From the IMG/VR virus record IMGVR_UViG_3300000293_000239: DNA of 9,340 bases, one strand, 5' to 3'. A program made the translations under genes and the position numbers. How positions within the stretch are numbered: position 1 is the first letter of the stretch; every line of letters starts with the position of its first letter. This DNA is from a virus. Lineage: Duplodnaviria > Heunggongvirae > Uroviricota > Caudoviricetes. Shown here piece after piece: positions 1-9,340 of the stretch. The notes beneath the pieces are model-generated. The model had not been told where the DNA came from. It was given only the letters and a program-made list of their open reading frames with translations, and ran no database searches.

Positions 1-768
1 ATGCCACAGCCGGCGCTAAAAGCGAACGAAATCAGCAGTGAATTAATCGATATTCTTGCGGCTCGGAATACGATATCCGAAATGCAATATTTTCGTTATA
101 TCAGAGATATAGAAAAGTTGCGCGACAGCGCATCTGAGGACTATCTCAAAGCGTTGGCTAATGGTGCTTTTGGGCGTAAAGATACTGCAGTTGCATTCTT
201 TGAAGAAGCATTGAAGCATAACAACCTGATCATTGCTCAAAATTATGTAGTTTATCTCAACGATTACGGCAGCTTCCGTGAAGTTGAACAAGTGGTAAAT
301 CGATTAGTTGAACGTTATAACTCCCCTACGATGCTGTCCCATGCATGGGAAGCTAACTTGTTCTTGGGGCGTATTGACAAAGCGCTCTACTATGCTGAGA
401 GATTGATAAGTATGGTAGATGAAAAGGAGGCTGAATTGGTTAAGCACCTCGCAGCCACAGCACTGGCCCAATCCACGACCTTCAAAAGTGCAACTGGAAT
501 TACTGATGAAGAACTACAGGATATTGCAAACCGCATAGTGGATATCATGGCTGACCATAAAGTTAGTCCTGTTGCTATGTCTTTCTGCTCTATCCCTGAA
601 GAGCGTACGTCATCATATGTCATGGCAGTTAATACTGAAGATTCTGATGTTCTCTCTGATATGAACTTGGATATAGCATTTTCTCTTGCAGAAAATGAAA
701 GTTTGATTGGAAAACCCTTCAGCGTATGGTTTGAAGGGCGTTTGGAGGAACCTGCGCGTGCCAGTTAA
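1..768 (+). CDS. Hypothetical protein, first gene of a two-gene operon; may be 5'-truncated by the window edge
   Basis: Open frame from the first base (ATG at 1-3) to TAA at 766-768; 255 aa, acidic, helical-looking. I recognise no family. Antisense ORFs 43..291 and 390..623 lie inside it and are treated as shadows. Confidence 0.5.
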   Translation: MPQPALKANEISSELIDILAARNTISEMQYFRYIRDIEKLRDSASEDYLKALANGAFGRKDTAVAFFEEALKHNNLIIAQNYVVYLNDYGSFREVEQVVNRLVERYNSPTMLSHAWEANLFLGRIDKALYYAERLISMVDEKEAELVKHLAATALAQSTTFKSATGITDEELQDIANRIVDIMADHKVSPVAMSFCSIPEERTSSYVMAVNTEDSDVLSDMNLDIAFSLAENESLIGKPFSVWFEGRLEEPARAS

Positions 769-1141
769 TAGTTCCGATTTTATCGCTTTCGCAAAAGATT
801 GTGAAAAGCGTAACGACGAAATTGGTTACAGAAACGCTGTCGCACGTGCGTATTATGGTGCTTATCACCACGTACTTCCGTGTTTGACCATGGGGCCGAA
901 AGAAAGTCACCAAGGCCTCATTGACTATCTTGTTAACGATGCTTGGAAGGGTAACGAACCTTTTGAAAAAAGAGACTTAATTGGTTTGGGGTATGCTCTT
1001 CAATCGCTTAAGGATCAGAGAATAGTTTGTGATTACAGACTTAACGACACTATTACGCCAACCCAATCAAGCACCGCGATTAAGACTGCAGAGAAATTAA
1101 TCCAGCGTTGCGCTAATATGACCAAGTCTAAAGCGTCCTAA
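758..1141 (+). CDS. Hypothetical protein (127 aa from GTG 758) with a possible HEPN-like R-x6-H motif (RAYYGAYH)
   Basis: Frame is open from 707, but the only upstream ATG (707) has no Shine-Dalgarno sequence. GTG at 758-760 is preceded by GGAGG (745-749) and overlaps the stop of the upstream gene, suggesting translational coupling. Stop TAA at 1139-1141, followed immediately by a terminator. The HEPN assignment is a motif-level guess only. Confidence 0.45.
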   Translation: MPVNSSDFIAFAKDCEKRNDEIGYRNAVARAYYGAYHHVLPCLTMGPKESHQGLIDYLVNDAWKGNEPFEKRDLIGLGYALQSLKDQRIVCDYRLNDTITPTQSSTAIKTAEKLIQRCANMTKSKAS

Positions 1142-1146
1142 TCCCC

Positions 1147-1180
1147 AAAATTGGCCTCATTTGAGGCCAATTTTATTATG
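1147..1180 (+). terminator. Rho-independent terminator; perfect 13-bp palindrome AAAATTGGCCTCA-TT-TGAGGCCAATTTT followed by T-rich tract
   Basis: Arms 1147-1159 and 1162-1174 pair perfectly with a 2-nt loop; GC-rich core GGCCTC/GAGGCC; A-run upstream and TTTTATTAT downstream, so potentially bidirectional. Sits 6 nt after the stop of the 758..1141 gene. Confidence 0.7.
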
Positions 1181-1212
1181 CATTGTATTTAATTTCACCG
1201 TGCGGAAGCATT

Positions 1213-1556
1213 ACCCAATCATATGGTTCCGCGTATAAATTTTCGTTGATTTCGCGTCGCTGTGGGCTATGAGCCCTTGTGGTCTACTCCCTGTTTATCA
1301 AACAAAATGCAGCTAGTGCGCGTATTTTGTGGAATGTGGGGGCGCAGCTCCATCGTCAAATTATTACACAAGCCTAACGAATCACGGGGCAATGAAAAGT
1401 ATGGCTAAGATAGGCAGGTGCGGATACCTCTTTACTGCGTTTGTTATTACGCTCGGTATACGGTGAACGATATACGGGCAGGCAACGTTATCGCGACTGT
1501 TATCAATAATACGTTTCAGTTTGTCCTCGAACTACATCACAACCGGCTTGAAAACT
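1213..1556 (-). pseudogene. Decayed 3' fragment of a tyrosine integrase gene, paralogous to the intact integrase at 2719..3903
   Basis: Minus-strand translation gives EDKLKRIIDNSRDNVACPYIVHRIP..., LCNNLTMELRP, FHKIRALAA, FDKQGVDHKG and AHSDAKSTKIYTRNHMIG-stop in shifting frames. These match the intact integrase C-terminus (KRIIDNSRDNVASPFVVHRIP ... LCNHLAMEQRP ... FHEIRALAAHLFDKQGIDPQGRMAHSDAKSTKIYTKNH). Several frameshifts and in-frame stops; the N-terminal two thirds are missing. The 5' boundary (~1556) is approximate. Confidence 0.75.
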
Positions 1557-1624
1557 AATTACTGGATTTTGTGCCTCCATAATCATATGATTTAAAATGT
1601 TATTTTATAAAAAAGGAGTTGTAT

Positions 1625-2581
1625 ATGACCAATTTGTATAAGTTTATGGGAGCGGATATAATTGATAAATTGATGATGGATGAAACACATATAGGAATAA
1701 AATTCTCTCATTTACATGAATATAATGATCCCTATGAGTTTTTCCTTACTATTGATTTTAATCGCGGTTCTGATGAGTTAGCATTTTACAATGAAATGAT
1801 TGGCATGGTTACAAAACAACCAGCAACTTGTTTTACGAAAAGCCCTGTGATACCACCTATGTGGGCACATTATGCAGGTAATTCTTCTGGTTTTGTAATA
1901 GAGATTAATGAGGAGAAGTTTAAAAAGTATTTGGATGAAATCGGCTTCCAGGATCATAGTTCAATAGCAGATGTTGAATATAAAGATTCTCCAGATACAG
2001 GTATTGAAGACATTCTGGCGAGAGCATTTCATATCTGTAAACCTCGTTATATCTACTGGCTACAATCCTGTATAATGACAGCCGCATATTTGACAAAACA
2101 AACTTGCTGGAGTTATGAGCAGGAACGTCGCGTAATAATTAATGAGAAAGCACTTACTAAACTGAATGACAATCTTATGCTCCTTCCGGTACCGATTAAT
2201 TGTATAACTGGAGTTATAGTTGGGCACAAATCAAATGATTTATTAAAGCAGAAAATTCAATCTTTAGCTAAAAAGGCTAAATGTAGATATTTCGAAATGG
2301 TAATAGGAAAAACAACAACTACACCATTTCTTTTATCTCAAAATCTCAAATCACACCAATTTATTAATGGCAATATAATACCTGCATCAAGGCAATGTAA
2401 AAAATGTTATGAGCCTTTAAACATGGAAAATAAAGTTTGTGGCTGGTGTGGAATTACTAATCATGATGTGAAAATGGCAGAGTACCGTAATTCATTTCGA
2501 ATGATAGCCAACTATGGTGGGCTGGATAAATATATATCATCCATGAATAAGATTACTGAAGAGTATAATAAGGGTAAATAA
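1625..2581 (+). CDS. DUF2971-like protein with C-terminal CxxC-x13-CxxC zinc ribbon; candidate defence/abortive-infection protein
   Basis: ATG at 1625 preceded by AAGGAG (1613-1618); stop TAA 2579-2581; 318 aa. N-terminus NLYKF...KFSHLHEYNDPYEF resembles the LYKY...NDP.E signature I associate with DUF2971. C-terminal CKKCYEPLNMENKVCGWCG is a zinc-ribbon motif. The gene is visibly far more AT-rich than its neighbours, consistent with horizontal acquisition. Family assignment is from memory of the motif, not a search. Confidence 0.8.
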   Translation: MTNLYKFMGADIIDKLMMDETHIGIKFSHLHEYNDPYEFFLTIDFNRGSDELAFYNEMIGMVTKQPATCFTKSPVIPPMWAHYAGNSSGFVIEINEEKFKKYLDEIGFQDHSSIADVEYKDSPDTGIEDILARAFHICKPRYIYWLQSCIMTAAYLTKQTCWSYEQERRVIINEKALTKLNDNLMLLPVPINCITGVIVGHKSNDLLKQKIQSLAKKAKCRYFEMVIGKTTTTPFLLSQNLKSHQFINGNIIPASRQCKKCYEPLNMENKVCGWCGITNHDVKMAEYRNSFRMIANYGGLDKYISSMNKITEEYNKGK

Positions 2582-2718
2582 ATTTTATTAATAAATATTG
2601 CTTTCTGGACAAGGGAGGAGTTATGGTAAATGGGCATAGAACTGCCTTTTAAATTAAGCTTTACTCTATGCCTTAGCAACCGTTATTGTCAGTCAAAATA
2701 AAGTGGAGAATTTAATAA

Positions 2719-3903
2719 CTAACCGGTTTTAATTTCTCCATGAGGGACAACAATCCAATCTATATGATTTTTAGTATAAATTTTAGTAGATTTCGCATCG
2801 CTATGTGCCATTCGTCCCTGCGGATCAATCCCTTGTTTATCAAATAGGTGAGCTGCCAAAGCTCTTATTTCATGGAATGTAGGTCTTTGTTCCATTGCTA
2901 GATGATTGCATAGTCCGAGTTTGTCTCGCACGGAAGAGAATGACCGACTCAAATAATCTGGTGCAACTTGAGTTGGGTGCGAAACCTCTTTACTGCGTTT
3001 AACATGCCGTTCTGGGATTCTATGAACGACAAAGGGACTGGCCACATTGTCACGGCTATTGTCAATTATCCGTTTCAATTCTTCACCAATTGGTATTGCA
3101 ACATGTGATGCCTCCTTTTTTTGTACTTTTTGCCTATGGATGTATAGTGTACCATATATGCCATTTTGTGGTTGTTCGAACCAAACACATCCACATAAAC
3201 CGTCTTTAGGTTCGCGAATTGAGTAACGGATTCGCGATACTTCGAGTCGTGCATGTGTAGTCTGCAATGCTAGGTCCATTGCTGTTCTTAACCATGGTGC
3301 AGCGGCCTGCCTGATAGCTATAAAATGCTCGAGTGACAGGCGCCGTCTTTTCTTCTCATCAGTCCTACGCATTTTTTTTCTGATGGCCGGGTTATCCTGC
3401 ATTAGTGATTCATCGACCGCATAAGAGAACAACTTTTTAAGAAAGCTGACCTTTCTGTTCTGCACATTTGCGGATGCGCTGGCATGATATTTGTTGATGT
3501 AGGCATTAACGTGTTCAAGTTCGATATCGCATGCCGGAACATTTACGAAAAATGCTTTTACGCGTAGAGCGTCATTTTTCCAGTCATCTAAGGTACTCTG
3601 GGAAGGTCGTTCGTCTTCGATAATTCTGGCCATTATGTGATCGACATGTTCAGCAAATGGTTTTGCTTCTCCGGTGACCCCGCCAGATTCTCTAATAAGA
3701 TTATCCACTGATGGGTATAATTCTGATCGCATCCTCAGGTTGTACTCTCTGGCGATTGCAACGGCTATTGCCCGATCCTTACCTATATTTTTCTTTTTTC
3801 CGGTAATAAGTGTGAATTTATAAACACCTCGATCTTTATCAAAAACCAGATAATCAGGAAGATGTCTGTATTCTTTTTTACGTGGCCTTGCCGCCATGGT
3901 CAT
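2719..3903 (-). CDS. int: Tyrosine recombinase / phage integrase (lambda Int family)
   Basis: 394 aa. Contains the conserved catalytic-region hallmarks of tyrosine recombinases (R in ...THARLEVS..., H-x-x-R in FHEIRALAA, and Y in STKIYTKNH) and an N-terminal arm-binding-like basic region. Its ATG (3901-3903) overlaps the excisionase stop (ATGA). Confidence 0.95.
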   Translation of the reverse strand: MTMAARPRKKEYRHLPDYLVFDKDRGVYKFTLITGKKKNIGKDRAIAVAIAREYNLRMRSELYPSVDNLIRESGGVTGEAKPFAEHVDHIMARIIEDERPSQSTLDDWKNDALRVKAFFVNVPACDIELEHVNAYINKYHASASANVQNRKVSFLKKLFSYAVDESLMQDNPAIRKKMRRTDEKKRRRLSLEHFIAIRQAAAPWLRTAMDLALQTTHARLEVSRIRYSIREPKDGLCGCVWFEQPQNGIYGTLYIHRQKVQKKEASHVAIPIGEELKRIIDNSRDNVASPFVVHRIPERHVKRSKEVSHPTQVAPDYLSRSFSSVRDKLGLCNHLAMEQRPTFHEIRALAAHLFDKQGIDPQGRMAHSDAKSTKIYTKNHIDWIVVPHGEIKTG

Positions 3904-4109
3904 CCCTCATTTATTAACTTGCGAACAGCTTGACTAACCATTGAGTCGACTCCCCATTTTTCTGTTTCGCAGACAAAAACAGAACCGTCCACTATACGCC
4001 CCATGAGCAGACCGTTCTCGACCCAGCGTTTTATCGTTCGGTTGTCAGGAATTGAGCCATTAGAGAATTCACGGCGTCCCCATTGGCTCGCTTTCATTAG
4101 TTTTGCCAT
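3900..4109 (-). CDS. xis: Excisionase (Xis-like small DNA-binding protein)
   Basis: 69 aa from ATG 4107-4109, preceded by GGAG about 8 nt upstream; the ORF-track start at 4154 is a TTG with no better support. Position immediately upstream of and overlapping int; small basic protein with ...TIKRWVENGLL... resembling excisionase/MerR-like winged helix. Functional call rests on synteny plus general resemblance. Confidence 0.7.
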   Translation of the reverse strand: MAKLMKASQWGRREFSNGSIPDNRTIKRWVENGLLMGRIVDGSVFVCETEKWGVDSMVSQAVRKLINEG

Positions 4110-4170
4110 GGCTGTTTCTCCACTTAACCCGCTGCACACGGGCAGTAATATCAAATTTCAGTCCTGATAA

Positions 4171-4386
4171 TTAATTTTGTTCTCTGGTTGCTACCTGTTT
4201 AATTGGCCTGATGCTGTCCAGGAGCAGTCGGCGGCGCGTATTTTCTGCAAAGTGGCGGCGTCCGGTTTCTTTGTGGTAAAACTCGTTTTCTCCGACGACC
4301 CACATCCGCTTTGTCTGGTGCAGTTTTTTTACCTGCGGACCGTTTCGGGTAATAACAATTCCTGTATGAGTTTTTATCACGCTCAT
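4171..4386 (-). CDS. Small hypothetical prophage early protein (71 aa)
   Basis: ATG (4384-4386) overlaps the stop of the upstream DUF551-like gene (ATGA coupling); basic protein. No family recognised. Confidence 0.55.
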   Translation of the reverse strand: MSVIKTHTGIVITRNGPQVKKLHQTKRMWVVGENEFYHKETGRRHFAENTRRRLLLDSIRPIKQVATREQN

Positions 4387-4745
4387 TTCTTATTCTCCGG
4401 TGCTTTCGGCATTACTGCCCAGTGAGTAATATTGACGTTTTCAAGGTCCCCGACCTGAAATGTCCACTGCCATTCTCCGGTTTCTTTTTGTCCCCAGGTG
4501 TACCAGAGAGAACGCCAGCCAATTAGCCAGCCTTCTCCGTTAGCATCAAATAACAGAACACTTTCATTTGCAGGTGGCAGTTCAGCTGACACTGGTATTA
4601 TTTTGTTTTCCAGTGCCGCACATTTAGCTTCAAGCGCGTCGAATTTACGTACTAGGTACTCAGCATTTGTTTCGTTCACTTTCAGATCTCGCGGTACACA
4701 TTTCCCGCGAAGAAACCCTTCCATTTCGAAAACATTCATGCGCAT
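4383..4745 (-). CDS. DUF551-like prophage protein (YfdS-like by size and synteny)
   Basis: 120 aa; Trp-rich C-terminal region (GWLIGWRSLWYTWGQKETGEWQW) typical of DUF551 as I recall it. Start ATG 4743-4745 with GGAG upstream; the stop of the upstream HD gene overlaps its third codon. Confidence 0.7.
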   Translation of the reverse strand: MRMNVFEMEGFLRGKCVPRDLKVNETNAEYLVRKFDALEAKCAALENKIIPVSAELPPANESVLLFDANGEGWLIGWRSLWYTWGQKETGEWQWTFQVGDLENVNITHWAVMPKAPENKK

Positions 4746-5272
4746 TTGCGTAACTCCGATAACTCGTTAAAACGTTCCATAAACATCCCATAGGCATGGC
4801 CTGGCGACAGTGGAATCACTTTGAACATCTCTGTTGCCGGGATACCTTCCAGTACAGGCCAGAAAGAGCCATCATCAAGCCCGAGATCGCGGCGTTCGGT
4901 TGCCAGCATGATGAGATCGGCATATTTCACGGGCGTGCTCATAACCGGGGGTAACCCGTATTTCTCACGGATTACGGCGTCTATTTTTTCTTCCATCCGT
5001 TTATAGTCAGGAAGAAGGCGTTTCAGTGGAGCCGGGATGTCCTGGCAATACGCTTCTGTTGCATCATGCATTAACGCTTCAAAAGCAAATTCCTGCGGCA
5101 CCAGCATGCTGCAAAGAACCGCATGTTGGGCGACGCTGTAGAAGTGCGAAAGATGACCGGCAAAGCGACAGATATTTGAAAGGGAAACCGCGATATCGTT
5201 AATATCGATGTCGTCTTTATTTATCTTGTCATAATAAAAATGCTTCCCGGAAAAAGTTTTAATAAATGACAT
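4736..5272 (-). CDS. yfdR: HD-domain metal-dependent phosphohydrolase (5'-deoxynucleotidase-like, YfdR-like)
   Basis: 178 aa from ATG 5270-5272 with GGAG upstream (GTGGAGAATAAAATG); the ORF-track start at 5299 lacks an SD. H...HD motif (HLSHFYSVAQH ... ALMHDATEAY) typical of the HD superfamily. Size and sequence context match what I remember of E. coli prophage YfdR. Confidence 0.85.
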   Translation of the reverse strand: MSFIKTFSGKHFYYDKINKDDIDINDIAVSLSNICRFAGHLSHFYSVAQHAVLCSMLVPQEFAFEALMHDATEAYCQDIPAPLKRLLPDYKRMEEKIDAVIREKYGLPPVMSTPVKYADLIMLATERRDLGLDDGSFWPVLEGIPATEMFKVIPLSPGHAYGMFMERFNELSELRKCA

Positions 5273-5399
5273 TTTATTCTCCACGTATATGCACTGCACC
5301 GCGCTGAATTCTGGTAAAAGGAAGCCCTCACCATCCGGTGATTATTGAGTTAATTACGTTTCCATAAATGCCCCCGCAGGGGCATTTGCAGTAATGAAA

Positions 5400-6224
5400 T
5401 CAGGCGGTGAAAGTACCAATAAAGGTTTCTACTTTGCTGTCTTTGAATTTCTCAACAAGCAGATCACGAAATTCGTTAGCCATTTCTTCCTGCACCGCTT
5501 CCAGCTGAATAATGCGCAGAACCAGTACAGGACGATCGCCAGTGATAATGCTGAGGCGTAATTTAAACGGACGTTCTTTCAGACCTTCAAACGGAACGCA
5601 TTTAAATTCAAATGCCACAGGCATAATGTCTTTGGTCTTCGCTTCGACAGACTCCATCAGGGAGCGTTTGCCGCTGAAGTCATTATCTTCAAAATCAGCG
5701 GTCTGGTTCGCTTCAATTGTGATTTTACGGATCGCCGCAGCAGCTTTGGTTGCCTGAATGGCGTCACCATTAGCATCAAAGCCCACAAGGTAGTCGGCCC
5801 AGTCTTCAATCCATTCTGCCAGTGACTTCTGGGAGTTACGCTCGCCGTTAACAGACAACAGGGCAGAGAACGGTGCTGTCTTTTTCAGTTTGAGAGTGGC
5901 GGTGTTATCTGCGTGACCTGGTTCATCAATAGTACCCAGGTTAAGCACACTGACGGCACGCATATTATCAGCATCGATAAAGCAGCGGGTGCCTTCATCT
6001 GCAAGATCTTTAGAATAACGGGTAAAGTCATCGATGCTGGCAGTGGAAAGCGCACCACGGAAACGGAAGCGATTTAAATTAAATTTTTCCAGATCATGAA
6101 TGCGGAAATTCTCAGGCAATGCCACAGCATCGGCACCAATCTTACTGATAATTTCATTAACACCCTGAGCAGAAATAAGGGCATGGATTTGATTAATTGC
6201 GGTTGCGTCTAAGTTCTGAGACAT
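5400..6224 (-). CDS. yfdQ: DUF2303 family protein (YfdQ-like)
   Basis: 274 aa; ATG 6222-6224 preceded by GAGGA; position upstream of the HD gene as in the yfdP-yfdQ-yfdR-yfdS cluster of E. coli prophage CPS-53/KplE1 (from memory). Confidence 0.8.
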
Positions 6225-6288
6225 AATCAGTCCTCACTATATAAAATATTCAGTGATGAGATAAATAATCAGTTAATTAAAAACGATA

Positions 6289-6651
6289 TTAATGACCTGC
6301 TGCGCGGAGTTTTCCGTCAGGTTCACCGGCAAGAGTCAGTAATTGTCCCTGGTCTTCCTGCAGAATAGTCAGGCGACCACCGCGATTGACATACATCGGT
6401 GTTTCGGTGGTGTCTTCTTCGGAAATTTTCCCGCGGTTAGTCGGGCGAACATATGAGAGTTTATGTTTTATTTTCACACGGTTCTCATCAAACGGTTCGA
6501 TTTCCAGGTTGAGCGAGACCTTACCTTTGGTTTTCGTGTTCATCACACCGGAAGCGACTTCACTGAGAACTGCGCCGATTTTGGTTTCAAATACGCCGCC
6601 GTCCAGCTCCCCGATAAATGCCTGCACATCAGTACTGCGTTCGCTAGCCAT
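6289..6651 (-). CDS. Hypothetical prophage protein, 120 aa (YfdP-like by size and synteny)
   Basis: The ORF track extends this frame to 6969, but the only start with a ribosome-binding site is ATG 6649-6651 (GAGGAGCAGCAAA-ATG). The upstream extension runs through a GC-rich, stop-poor structured region and is low-complexity. Confidence 0.7.
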   Translation of the reverse strand: MASERSTDVQAFIGELDGGVFETKIGAVLSEVASGVMNTKTKGKVSLNLEIEPFDENRVKIKHKLSYVRPTNRGKISEEDTTETPMYVNRGGRLTILQEDQGQLLTLAGEPDGKLRAAGH

Positions 6652-6699
6652 TTTGCTGCTCCTCATCATATCGACCCTGCAAGGTCGGTTGGTTTCTCC

Positions 6700-6788
6700 A
6701 CAAAACAGAGAAGAACACCTGCGGTGGCAGCCGCCCGGATGGATTGGGTTATGAGCCCGTCGTCCGGTGATGCTCTTCTCTGTTTTGT
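6700..6788. repeat. Perfect 15-bp inverted repeat (ACAAAACAGAGAAGA / TCTTCTCTGTTTTGT) separated by a 59-nt GC-rich spacer
   Basis: Arms at 6700-6714 and 6774-6788 are exact reverse complements. Lies in the 5' leader of the leftward early genes; the right arm overlaps the U-tract of the adjacent minus-strand terminator. Confidence 0.6.
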
Positions 6789-6834
6789 AAAAAGAGCGGT
6801 ACCAGCCGGAAGCAAGGGTACAAACTGGTACCGC
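6786..6834 (-). terminator. Candidate intrinsic terminator for leftward transcription (10-bp GC-rich stem GCGGTACCAG/CTGGTACCGC, 19-nt loop, then UCUUUUUACA on the minus strand)
   Basis: Stem arms at 6796-6805 and 6825-6834 are perfect complements; on the minus strand the hairpin is followed by TCTTTTTACA (complement of 6786-6795). The loop is larger than in typical terminators. Confidence 0.45.
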
Positions 6835-7088
6835 CAGGACTACACACAGCATAAAGTTGTGGTGCCGGGTGCCTCCCGGTGCCTGGCGAAGGTTGCACAC
6901 CAGACGGGTGGGTATCCACAGAAGGTCGACTGTCAGCCTCAACCTTAACCCGCGTGCGCTGAGCCGCATTCACCACAACGCTAAGGATTCTCTCTGGTTG
7001 AAAATACTTAGCTGTTATGTGCCTGTCTTTTCACCACTTCAGGCTCGGTGGTATCCTTTTAAGCCCGTATACATAAAAGGAAAATCAA

Positions 7089-7334
7089 ATGACTTTTGAT
7101 GAAAAAGAACTTGATAATGCAATTAATAAAATCATCGTAACGTCGCTCTTTTCCTGTCTCAGCGACACTCAGCAGAAACAGTTCTACGAATCGGCTTTCA
7201 ACATGATCGAGCGTTGTTGTTTCTGCGATGCCGACGAGTTACCTGAAAAAATCAGAAAACAGTTGGCTGATGCTCTTCGAGTGCGACTTTCTGACCAATT
7301 TTCTGAAATGTGCTCTCCGAATTTGGACAAATAG
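7089..7334 (+). CDS. Hypothetical small protein (81 aa), rightward-oriented inside the leftward early region
   Basis: ATG 7089 preceded by AAGGA about 8 nt upstream; protein-like composition (charged, helical, CxC pair). Its 3' end overlaps the convergent minus-strand ORF 7252..7527 by 83 bp, so at least one of the two may be mis-called. Confidence 0.45.
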   Translation: MTFDEKELDNAINKIIVTSLFSCLSDTQQKQFYESAFNMIERCCFCDADELPEKIRKQLADALRVRLSDQFSEMCSPNLDK

Positions 7335-7527
7335 AAAAAGGCCATTTCCATTCAGGGTCTGATGGAAATACTTCAGCCTGTTCCAAAGCACGGTGTAAAG
7401 AGAATACAACTCCAGCCATAATCTGATGTTTCCCATTGGTCCAGCTATCGCCGCTCTGATCTACAGGAGCGGCTATGTCGTATGACCAAACGACTTCACC
7501 ACTATTGTTTAAAATCTGGACTTTCAT
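7252..7527 (-). CDS. Hypothetical small protein (91 aa), leftward early operon
   Basis: ATG 7525-7527 preceded by GGAGG at good spacing; the SD is formed by the last codons of the upstream 61-aa ORF (coupled arrangement). The C-terminal third is antisense to the 7089..7334 ORF, and a weak hairpin plus U-run (7344-7369) lies inside it. Confidence 0.45.
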   Translation of the reverse strand: MKVQILNNSGEVVWSYDIAAPVDQSGDSWTNGKHQIMAGVVFSLHRALEQAEVFPSDPEWKWPFSICPNSESTFQKIGQKVALEEHQPTVF

Positions 7528-7535
7528 TTTGTTCT

Positions 7536-7721
7536 TTAACCTCCAGATTTCCGCGCATCTAAAGGCGCATTCTCATTTGGTGTGAACTGAATAGTTGTGC
7601 TGATATTGATTAATGCTCCGACACACAAGACTACGCACTCAGAGCAGATAGCAACTTCATCTTTTCCGCCTTTGGCGATGATTTTTTTGCCTGCAGCTCG
7701 TTTGCGCCACAAAACGAGCAT
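7536..7721 (-). CDS. Questionable small basic ORF (61 aa), first ORF downstream of the putative pL
   Basis: No Shine-Dalgarno sequence; the start codon is embedded at the edge of an 8-bp stem / 8-nt loop hairpin (7696-7719). Position corresponds to where N-like antiterminators sit in lambdoid phages, but I see no arginine-rich motif match I can defend. Confidence 0.25.
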   Translation of the reverse strand: MLVLWRKRAAGKKIIAKGGKDEVAICSECVVLCVGALINISTTIQFTPNENAPLDARKSGG

Positions 7722-7839
7722 GTGAAATAACGGTTCATTTGCGCTCTCTTACACATAGTATTTAACGAATCATCCGGTCATTCATACGCCACCGGCGGCT
7801 ACTTCGTGGGCGTCCTGCCTGTTCGTTATCTTTGACATA

Positions 7840-7910
7840 AAATCTAACTTAACTTAGTTATTATGGCAAGAGAAAACACCAAACTTTTCTTAGTTCGGTG
7901 CCTTAGTTAG
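7840..7910 (-). promoter_or_regulatory. Putative OL/pL region: leftward promoter (-35 TTGCCA, 17-nt spacer, -10 TAGATT on the minus strand) overlapped by operator repeats
   Basis: 11-bp palindrome TAACTTAGTTA (7850-7860) lies in the spacer between the candidate -35 and -10. Further CTTAGTT copies at 7889-7895 and 7902-7908. Located just downstream of the repressor gene, as OL/pL is in lambdoid phages. Promoter hexamers are by-eye matches. Confidence 0.5.
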
Positions 7911-7922
7911 AGAAGAGAGGTC

Positions 7923-8549
7923 TTAGAGTTCGTATTGAACTCCTTTGACTACACCAATGATAAGGCAATTACCATTGATAGGGATGTTGGGATACCGAGG
8001 ATTTAATGGCACTAAAAACTTTTGAGGGCCATCGATGACTAATTTTTTTACTGTAGCTTCGTTTGTTCCATCAAGTCGAGCGATGACTATTTTTCCATGA
8101 CGAGGTTCTGCATCTGGATCTACAATCACTGTTGCGCCTTCTGGTATTGTTGGGAGGCCATTAGGGTTAGTCATGGAGTCACCTTTAACCTCTAATGCAA
8201 ATGAGTTATCACCAATCTTTAATGATGTATCTACCCACTTGTCCACTTCACTAAACACTTCTGCTGCCCTGCACTCAGTAAACTGCCCAGCCTGAACCCA
8301 CGATATTACAGGAACTCTGCGCATGTTTGTGACGAGTTTGCCTTCAAACTCAGCACCATAAAGAATGTAATCTATTGACGTATTGAAGAACTTCGCTAAT
8401 TTCGAAAGTGCCTCCCCACCAGGGGTATTGATGTCTTTCTCCCAGTACCCCACAGCAACGTCGCTTACTCCACAAAATTTACCCAATTCTTTCTGGGACG
8501 TTCTGGTAACTCTTCTCAGAGCTTTTATACGCTGACCAACCGTTTCCAT
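7923..8549 (-). CDS. cI: CI-like prophage repressor (N-terminal HTH_XRE domain + C-terminal LexA/S24 peptidase-like autocleavage domain)
   Basis: 208 aa. N-terminal helix-turn-helix (QKELGKFCGVSDVAVGYWEKD), C-terminal S24-like region with GDSM serine motif and downstream lysine (KKLV). Divergent from a cro-like gene across an operator-bearing intergenic region. No SD upstream of its ATG (possible leaderless transcript). Confidence 0.9.
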   Translation of the reverse strand: METVGQRIKALRRVTRTSQKELGKFCGVSDVAVGYWEKDINTPGGEALSKLAKFFNTSIDYILYGAEFEGKLVTNMRRVPVISWVQAGQFTECRAAEVFSEVDKWVDTSLKIGDNSFALEVKGDSMTNPNGLPTIPEGATVIVDPDAEPRHGKIVIARLDGTNEATVKKLVIDGPQKFLVPLNPRYPNIPINGNCLIIGVVKGVQYEL

Positions 8550-8646
8550 AGGAGCACCATTTCTTGAATTGCTAAGTAATCTTAGTTTTTATTGACCAAA
8601 GATAGATTTGTAATTAGCATCTAATAAAACTTAGTTTGGAGGGCGT
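8550..8646. promoter_or_regulatory. Putative OR region with divergent promoters (pRM leftward, pR rightward) and operator palindromes
   Basis: 14-bp palindrome CTAAGTAATCTTAG (8572-8585); 11-bp palindrome AAACTTAGTTT (8627-8637); candidate pR -35 TTGACC (8592-8597), 17-nt spacer, -10 TAGCAT (8615-8620); SD GGAGGG before the cro-like ATG. Confidence 0.6.
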
Positions 8647-8847
8647 ATGACAACTGACGATATCGAAAGCTACTTCGGCAGTATTGAGAAAGTTGCTGCT
8701 TTTTTCGGCATAACAACTGAAGCCGTTTATCAGTGGCGAAACCGTCCGGGCCAGTTAATTCCAAAAGGACGTGCAGCAGAAGCTGCATATAGAACTTGCG
8801 GACGGTTGCCATTTAAACCTGAGCTTTATGAAAAATCTAATGGATAA
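8647..8847 (+). CDS. cro: Cro-like small HTH regulator
   Basis: 66 aa; strong SD (GGAGGG) 5 nt upstream of ATG 8647; divergent from the CI-like repressor; HTH-like segment (IEKVAAFFGITTEAVYQWRN). The antisense ORF 8621..8812 is rejected. Confidence 0.75.
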   Translation: MTTDDIESYFGSIEKVAAFFGITTEAVYQWRNRPGQLIPKGRAAEAAYRTCGRLPFKPELYEKSNG

Positions 8848-9340
8848 ATCGATTAACAGAAACCACAGAACGATGAGGCTAACCGTGGGTAAGCATCACT
8901 GGAAAGTAGAAAAACAGCCTGAGTGGTACGTGAAAGCTGTCAGAAAAACTATCGCAAAGTTGCCGGGTGGTTACGCTGAAGCAGCTGACTGGCTGGATGT
9001 AACAGAGAACGCATTATTTAACCGCCTTCGTGCTGATGGCGATCAGATTTTCCCGCTGGGATGGGCAATGATTTTGCAACGTGCTGGTGGAACTCACTTC
9101 ATTGCTGATGCTGTGGCGCAGTCTGCAAATGGCGTCTTTGTGTCTCTTCCTGACGTCGAGGATGTGGACAACGCCGATATTAACCAGCGTCTGCTGGAAG
9201 TCATTGAACAGATCGGCAGTTATTCAAAACAGATTCGTTCAGCAATCGAAGACGGTGTAGTGGAACCGCATGAGAAGACAGCAATTACTGGTTTTTACAG
9301 TTGCTCGATAAAGTCACGCCCTCACAGTGGGCGGCAATAG
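8840..9340 (+). CDS. CII-like phage regulatory protein (resembles the phage CII/CP76 family as I recall it)
   Basis: Open frame from 8771 to TAG 9338-9340. Start is ambiguous: GTG 8771, ATG 8828 or ATG 8840. I chose ATG 8840, which overlaps the cro-like stop (8845-8847), as a coupled start. Position immediately after cro matches cII. Family call is from memory of sequence style, not a search. Confidence 0.6.
   Translation: MDKSINRNHRTMRLTVGKHHWKVEKQPEWYVKAVRKTIAKLPGGYAEAADWLDVTENALFNRLRADGDQIFPLGWAMILQRAGGTHFIADAVAQSANGVFVSLPDVEDVDNADINQRLLEVIEQIGSYSKQIRSAIEDGVVEPHEKTAITGFYSCSIKSRPHSGRQ

Follow-up and report, generated by a model that had tools for sequence, protein, structure and literature searches.

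The window, as we call the whole stretch of 9,340 nucleotides that was analysed, contains the 3' end of a lambda-type integrase gene twice, once as part of an intact gene (int) and once as a broken fragment (the stump) next to a gene with a DUF2971 domain. We asked from which element the stump derives, how it came to lie beside an intact integrase gene, and whether it still serves a function. The features of the left part of the window are as follows.

1..768, plus strand: accessory gene A1, 255 aa, weakly TPR-like, PHROG 17809 (open reading frame; PHROG E 4e-42)
758..1141, plus strand: accessory gene A2, 127 aa in RefSeq, 144 aa from an upstream TTG (PHROG 5176, E 6e-30)
1146..1172, no strand: perfect hairpin AAAATTGGCCTCA / TGAGGCCAATTTT with a 13-bp stem (read from the sequence)
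1176..1576, minus strand: integrase 3' stump, a pseudogene (tblastn, alignments, RefSeq)
1577..1609, no strand: novel joint, 33 AT-rich bases (limits of homology on both sides)
1610..2581, plus strand: DUF2971 gene, accessory gene B, coding sequence 1625-2581 plus ribosome-binding site (Pfam E 2e-09)
2582..2718, no strand: spacer between DUF2971 and int, with no att copy (no match to core or P' arm; co-linear with loci L018-L020)
2719..3903, minus strand: intact lambda-type tyrosine integrase of the resident prophage, 394 aa (open reading frame, alignment to lambda Int)
3900..4109, minus strand: small gene overlapping the int start, 69 aa, hypothetical in RefSeq (position)

The integrase stump and the prophage around it

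When the intact integrase (394 aa) was compared with the window by tblastn, the stump region was matched in three reading frames, by residues 257-381 at 1576-1220 (E 1e-15), by residues 293-392 at 1475-1188 (E 1e-09), and, in a search against the 600-nt region alone, by residues 322-363 (E 1e-10). The nucleotide alignment of stump and int was co-linear over the entire 3' end, i.e. the 3' third of the gene, and so not a mere low-complexity patch. These results bore out the sequence-only reading in that the region is a frameshifted second copy of an integrase 3' end, and the pairwise and translated alignments it had proposed as a check recovered a co-linear integrase C-terminus rather than a short low-complexity stretch. 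Its limits of 1213-1556 mark a real region, but the homology is somewhat longer, occupying 1176-1576 on the minus strand and corresponding to codons ~257-392 of the intact integrase gene (2719-3903). The peptide AHSDAKSTKIYTRNHMIG-stop is found in the stump, and past it, after one further frameshift, the homology runs on to DWVMLPHGEIKYNA-stop at ~1176; on the 5' side it reaches ~1576.

Alignment with five relatives, intact or with an open frame, revealed that the stump has lost single nucleotides at five places and 15 nt at another, has gained 1 nt at one place, and has acquired two in-frame stops close to its 5' end. With six frameshifting indels it has neither a start codon nor an open frame, the longest minus-strand ORF being 41 aa. 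The arm-binding and core-binding domains are absent, and nothing upstream of 1576 matches int. The catalytic residues were mapped through the alignment of the intact integrase to lambda Int, and the R-K-H-R-H-Y set proved incomplete: the HxxR, H and Y regions are left, in different frames, while Arg-I (~residue 218) is missing and the Lys hairpin falls at the degenerate 5' edge. RefSeq labels window 1176-1525 'recombinase; frameshifted; incomplete; missing N-terminus'; the stump is an ordinary integrase pseudogene already flagged by public annotation.

The intact integrase aligns to lambda Int residues 3-325 (E 2e-12) across the arm-binding, core-binding and catalytic domains, with TFHEIRAL aligned to TFHELRSL, and belongs to the PHROG 1 integrase family. 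Its Arm-DNA-bind_1 match (E 1e-05) is over the cut-off, and its H and Y motifs can be read in the sequence as AHSD...IYT. A full-length frame, an arm-binding domain and a catalytic alignment are what a functional lambda-type tyrosine integrase would have. The small gene overlapping its start is likely an excisionase gene (xis), judging by its position; it gave a weak helix-turn-helix match.

Window 1-9287 is 100% identical to E. coli chromosomes, for example that of CCUG 73778, where it sits in a lambdoid prophage at the tRNA-Pro gene proL, between yejO and yejM. To the right follow the genes of a complete lambdoid prophage, namely int, a small xis-like gene, yfdR/Q/P, cI/cro and those for replication, lysis, head and tail; its early region is 96% identical to SfV, and its right end consists of a few accessory genes followed by proL. 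These last genes (L002 22847-25177, from the tail-fibre assembly gene to proL) encode a 113-aa hypothetical protein and a DUF4236 protein and include a frameshifted DinI-like gene. RefSeq also records a frameshifted hypothetical gene upstream of yfdP at window 6666-6976, which a 226-aa ORF at 6289-6969 merges with yfdP. The last 53 bases of the window (9288-9340) are unmatched in the otherwise identical E. coli, the top matches ending at 9287 inside a ymfL-like gene; this break may reflect a mosaic breakpoint, the limit of a mobile element or an artefact at the end of the source contig.

The ends of the prophage are marked by a direct repeat, present at L001 11475-11562 (window -525 to -438) and again at L002 25377-25464. 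At its centre is an identical 53-nt core, composed of the 3' 46 nt of tRNA-Pro(GGG) plus 7 nt and flanked on one side by a diverged copy of the tRNA terminator. The left copy of the core (L001 11513-11562, window -487 to -438) lies 438 bp to the left of the window start and the right copy overlaps proL, 46.8 kb to the right, which is the only end at which ARAGORN called tRNA-Pro(GGG). When the 50-nt core was searched for by short-word BLAST and by fuzzy matching that allowed up to 8 mismatches, no third att core was detected in 71 kb, and the same two methods detected the 131-nt P' arm in these 71 kb as a single copy, after the left core. The outer flanks, joined in silico as an empty yejO-proL-yejM site, were contiguous in 4826 of 5426 complete E. 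coli genomes. The locus thus has a distal core copy, an intact tRNA gene proximally and an uninterrupted site elsewhere, as does a prophage integrated in a tRNA gene, here proL, and the 53-nt tRNA-Pro cores are its predicted att sites.

Since there are only two cores and the empty site is contiguous, all DNA between the cores was inserted, including window 1-2718. One att-bounded prophage is accordingly predicted to enclose the two genes at 1-1141, the stump and DUF2971 alike. The sequence-only reading had placed the stump and the DUF2971 gene outside the current prophage, with DUF2971 lying exactly between the two; this placement does not hold, with no core between those that lie 438 bp to the left and 46.8 kb to the right and DUF2971 enclosed by them.

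A short AT-rich string had also been put forward as a possible att core remnant. This 10-mer, AATTTTATTA, does occur twice in the window, compared with 0.07 copies expected from whole-window shuffles; its first position (1169-1178) was given correctly, and the second is 2581-2590, one base off from the 2580-2589 originally reported. The two copies are in non-equivalent positions, the first overlapping the stump stop codons and the T-tract of a terminator hairpin and the second falling at the DUF2971 stop codon, 130 nt past the int stop. Both are near the left end (1169 and 2581) rather than at the ends of the element, where the repeats are the 53-nt tRNA-Pro core, and AATTTTATTA was therefore ruled out as an att core. 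The hairpin in question (1146-1172) stands between the convergent cassette (A1 and A2) and stump with an A-run and a T-run on its flanks, the T-tract being AATTTTATTA, and it is kept in the sister lineage T309.Ta3 described below. Its probable role is that of a bidirectional terminator, formerly used by both the cassette and the old integrase gene; an Rfam match of the hairpin to a generic stem-loop (Histone3) was below threshold and spurious.

Parental arrangements on either side of the joint

Neither gene of the cassette is well characterised by domain searches, A1 giving Pfam TPR matches below threshold and A2 giving no Pfam, NCBIfam or PADLOC match. Scanning a single genome of each species with the A1 protein (255 aa) identified one locus in Pseudocitrobacter faecalis (L011) and one in Enterobacter wuhouensis (L012), where the A1 homologues are 66% and 48% identical, respectively, at the amino acid level. 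In both, an intact integrase gene (392-400 aa) lies on the opposite strand immediately after a homologous two-gene cassette, and a tRNA-Pro core lies ~440 bp upstream of the cassette, the same spacing as at the window locus. A single HSP, extending from the cassette into int, aligned window 1-1530 with L011 6001-7560, and L011 has the closest intact relative of the stump: nucleotide identity to the resident int is 62% (~62-66%), and to L011 it is 66-70%. This co-linearity, together with the closest relative being the L011 integrase gene, indicates that the stump is the remnant of the cassette phage's native integrase. By these alignments, the stump is predicted to be the 3' third of the int native to parent A, a lambdoid phage integrating at proL. 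At 62% identity to the resident int, the stump is a remnant of a second, related integrase and not a recent duplication, as the sequence-only reading had maintained.

The genes at 1-1141 are not chromosomal. They occur in only 55 of the 5426 E. coli genomes, 52 of which have the whole 1-2720 block including the stump; their products fall in phage protein families, and they are the partners of the parental integrase gene. Sensitive blastn of the stump against the 5426 E. coli genomes recovered only copies of the stump itself, a sister copy (substitution identity 89%, or 86% in BLAST with gaps), a SMODS-linked stump at 68%, and intact integrase genes at ~75% over short stretches; a search of the phage collection with the stump gave one 80-nt match. 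No intact version of the stump's integrase gene was found in any E. coli phage or genome by this search, and the nearest one is in another genus at 66-70% nucleotide identity, which counts against the origin proposed below.

On the other side of the joint, three IMG/VR loci (L018-L020) have a DUF2971 homologue (81-83% aa identity) followed directly by an int 88-89% identical at the amino acid level to the intact one. They are co-linear with window 1610/1625-4143, and DUF2971, spacer, int and xis form one module in these other phages. L019 also includes the final 31 nt of the P' arm, located ~85 nt upstream from the DUF2971 gene; this locus extends 171 nt upstream of the gene, and no DUF2971 locus was long enough to include a complete, stump-free succession of core, P' arm and DUF2971. 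The co-linearity of L018-L020 and the P' arm in L019 argue that a second member of the family, parent B, natively has DUF2971-int-xis at its left end. The DUF2971 gene matches Pfam DUF2971 (E 2e-09), the PADLOC candidate PDC-S31 (E 4e-22) and PHROG 1762. A lactococcal DUF2971 protein is the Aristaios abortive-infection anti-phage system (PMC11381338), and the gene in the window is a candidate anti-phage defence gene.

The stump homology stops at ~1576 and the homology to L018-L020 begins at 1610-1625, with the joint (1577-1609) between them. We consider it very probable that the stump is a functionless seam, left when parents A and B, two related proL phages, recombined and stacked their accessory modules. 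The anatomy of the locus, the att sites and both parental arrangements were observed directly, as was the faster-than-neutral divergence of the stump presented below, whereas we infer the order of events and the route. Phages of this family share the order tRNA-Pro core, ~130-bp P' arm, variable accessory slot, int and xis. Parent B, with DUF2971 in its slot, would have recombined with parent A through an illegitimate joint at 1577-1609, by which codon ~257 of int-A became linked to DNA ~15 nt ahead of the DUF2971 start. Lost in this joint would have been the core and P' arm of parent B and the 5' two-thirds of int-A; int and xis would have been supplied by parent B and attL by the parent-A side. 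This would have left a single prophage in which two accessory modules are stacked, the dead int fragment marking the seam between them.

Two routes could lead to this arrangement. A transient tandem lysogen, A then B, may have been cut down by a ~40 kb deletion, or the crossover may have been a direct phage-phage event, in which a resident and an incoming genome underwent an illegitimate crossover that was resolved by homologous recombination further along. Long-read assemblies with tandem prophages at this site had been suggested as a check, and none turned up: all 52 complete genomes with the block have a single copy and no tandem array. Neither an internal att junction nor a second phage body was found between the stump and int, where DUF2971 is the only gene. 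A past tandem integration could be compatible with these results if the junction was later deleted.

Among 52 unrelated E. coli, which include ST131, ST167 and isolates from animals, the block shows 99.9-100% identity and is always at the proL site and in one copy. Its near-identity in unrelated strains indicates that the stump travels inside a mobile phage genome. In strain J2, the block breaks off at window 1470, next to an IS1 element, and the remainder of the prophage is missing up to a DinI-like pseudogene by proL (L003 10470-11183); the position of IS1 at this break points to a secondary deletion.

Decay of the stump and alternative explanations

Strain T309.Ta3 harbours a sister version of the whole block, with its stump copy at L006 6035-6475, so the decay of the stump could be compared with that of its neighbours. 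Between the two versions, 11.0% of stump sites differ and a further 26 alignment columns are indels, whereas overall divergence of the three flanking genes is 2-4%, and that of their fourfold-degenerate sites 5-6%; stump divergence is thus ~2-fold the silent-site rate of its neighbours. The 5' truncation and the two stops are common to both versions, while the frameshifts are lineage-specific, and the T309 stump is still essentially one reading frame. Because the stump diverges faster than the silent sites of the neighbouring genes, it is most likely a functionless, unconstrained relic. However, 21 of its substitutions are derived in the window lineage and 6 in that of T309 (14 are ambiguous), and the twofold rate and this asymmetry only partly fit simple neutral decay, which also counts against the proposed origin. 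In T309.Ta3, an IS903B element is inserted in the spacer between DUF2971 and int (window 2582-2718; L006 7678-8646).

It is unlikely, by our estimate, that the stump has instead been kept for a function, be it as a homology anchor that acts with the P' arm in cassette exchange, as a promoter or insulator for DUF2971, or as a site bound by Int. DUF2971 has lost its native upstream region, so its promoter must be in or near the stump. The interval 1400-1620 nevertheless held no plus-strand promoter-like site, with site counts no higher than in shuffles, and a DUF2971 promoter inside the stump was rejected for want of a plus-strand consensus match. Rfam searches with the stump gave nothing relevant at either the gathering or a permissive threshold, and a sequence that outpaces silent sites and gains lineage-specific indels does not behave as one under constraint.

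In favour of a retained function, a second unit of this kind exists. A 3.0-kb block at L005 3915-6924 (equivalent to L008 2915-5925 and found also in L004 and L009, with an IS3-cut copy in L010) comprises an attP-like site, SMODS and SLATT genes, an int stump and ~530 bp more. The attP-like site consists of a phage-side flank, a tRNA-Pro-like core with two substitutions and a P' arm, 73% identical to the window locus; the int stump is an open frame for residues 271-394, with 83% identity to the intact int. Copies of the block at two places, one beside the tail-fibre genes near ybhB and the other in the nin region (DUF977-hokD) of Qin-like prophages, share 99.4% identity, and the block is found in three different prophage contexts. 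Site-specific insertion of this unit was rejected, given that it has a single diverged core and no flanking repeats, and this also weakens the case for a retained function.

The two stumps start within ~10 codons of each other, at ~1576 in the window (codon ~257) and at ~6391-6410 in L005 (codons ~258-265). Both starts come just after the catalytic-Lys hairpin and an A-rich tract, and the DNA beyond the two breaks is unrelated. The shared start may be a coincidence or a breakpoint hotspot, two boundaries being too few for statistics; an independent second stump with such a start could hint at a non-random breakpoint, a point against the recombination scenario as we framed it. A more general scheme for this tRNA-Pro Int family, in which the int 3' end and the P' arm would anchor a swappable slot and units of att, cargo and stump would recur with preferred breaks at codons ~257-265, is possible, although we regard it as unlikely. 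If it is true, the window stump would be one footprint of a general phage habit of shuffling and stacking defence genes.

Very improbable, in our assessment, is the explanation favoured by the sequence-only reading, that an older element at this chromosomal site was mostly deleted and that the stump and DUF2971 lie outside the prophage, with AATTTTATTA between DUF2971 and int as the left core. The stump does come from a related integrase of equal site specificity, AATTTTATTA is present twice where 0.07 copies are expected, and J2 keeps the cassette and part of the stump without the prophage. The sole att repeats, however, are the tRNA-Pro cores that flank 46.8 kb, with none between the stump and int, and the two copies of AATTTTATTA occupy non-equivalent positions (T-tract and stop codons versus the DUF2971 stop). 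DUF2971, spacer, int and xis form one co-linear module in other phages, and window 1-2720 never occurs without the prophage except in J2, with its IS1 at 1470. The remaining explanation, a recent local duplication of the resident int 3' end by slipped or unequal recombination followed by decay, would account for the shared orientation, the 1.2-kb distance and the co-linearity of the two copies, but it has next to no chance of being correct and was ruled out by the 62% nucleotide identity of stump and int amid flanking DNA that is 100% conserved in 52 genomes and by the stump's being closer to Pseudocitrobacter L011, where it is co-linear together with the cassette.

The variable att-int slot and related systems

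Prophages with int genes 88-92% identical at the nucleotide level to the intact one are found at yejO-proL in other E. coli, and at least five different cargo sets occupy the interval between the P' arm and int (in the window, GZM7, EC20-4B-2, LD91-1 and MJ-T), with the core upstream in all. In this respect the sequence-only reading was right to suspect a repeatedly used site. In GZM7, homology spans yejO, the core and the ~130-bp P' arm (93% conserved) and then ends; two unrelated genes follow and abut the stop codon of an int with ~90% nucleotide identity. Unrelated gene sets between the same conserved flanks make yejO-proL a variable hotspot. In other E. coli, the cargo of the slot encodes 66-aa and 283-aa proteins (L007 5693-6959), a 283-aa protein (L023 3382-4521), a 289-aa protein (L024 2983-4499), or an ATP/GTP-binding protein and its partner with a transposase fragment and DUF4760 (L025 566-4487). 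All three accessory proteins of the window fall in phage protein families (PHROG) without an assigned function, and the two-gene cassette had no defence match in PADLOC. A defence role for the slot is plausible; literature searches on proL prophage integration and att-int defence hotspots yielded nothing specific to the yejO-proL locus.

Several known systems resemble parts of this arrangement. SfV/P22-type phages have an O-antigen gtr cluster between attP and int, and P2/P4-type elements have defence hotspots. Like the SfV/P22-type slot, the slot described here is variable and sharply bounded, extending from the P' arm to the int stop codon and holding unrelated cargo; unlike it, the window cargo is not gtr but a TPR-like cassette and DUF2971, two sets stacked around an int fragment. 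A truncated, frameshifted tyrosine-recombinase gene at a module joint is also what integrase pseudogenes and 'grounded' or mosaic lambdoid prophages, products of modular phage evolution through illegitimate and homologous recombination, exhibit, although in contrast with 'grounded' prophages the relic in the window is inside an apparently intact and widely spread prophage, beside an int predicted to work.

Tandem (poly)lysogens at one attB likewise bring together two phages with the same att specificity and left-end modules in tandem order. The window locus differs from them in lacking an internal att (POP'), a second phage body and, in the 52 genomes, a tandem copy, and any tandem stage would have had to lose ~40 kb including the junction. 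In Myxococcus phage Mx8 intP and SSV-type archaeal integrases, where attP lies within int, an int fragment is also separate from the rest of the gene, but there it exactly complements the split gene and is located at an att junction. The window stump is 62% identical to int and 1.7 kb from the att core, and a split integrase of the Mx8/SSV type was rejected since int is complete and the stump divergent.

By itself, the stump matters little, being a dead gene fragment of a well-known kind that is already in RefSeq. For the calling of prophage boundaries it urges caution, in that an int fragment and an AT-rich repeat beside an intact int are not a prophage end. Its modest value would be as a dated seam, at which the accessory modules of two related proL phages, one of them with a candidate defence gene, would have come together in the att-int slot, giving rise to a composite phage that has since spread nearly unchanged through many unrelated E. 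coli lineages.
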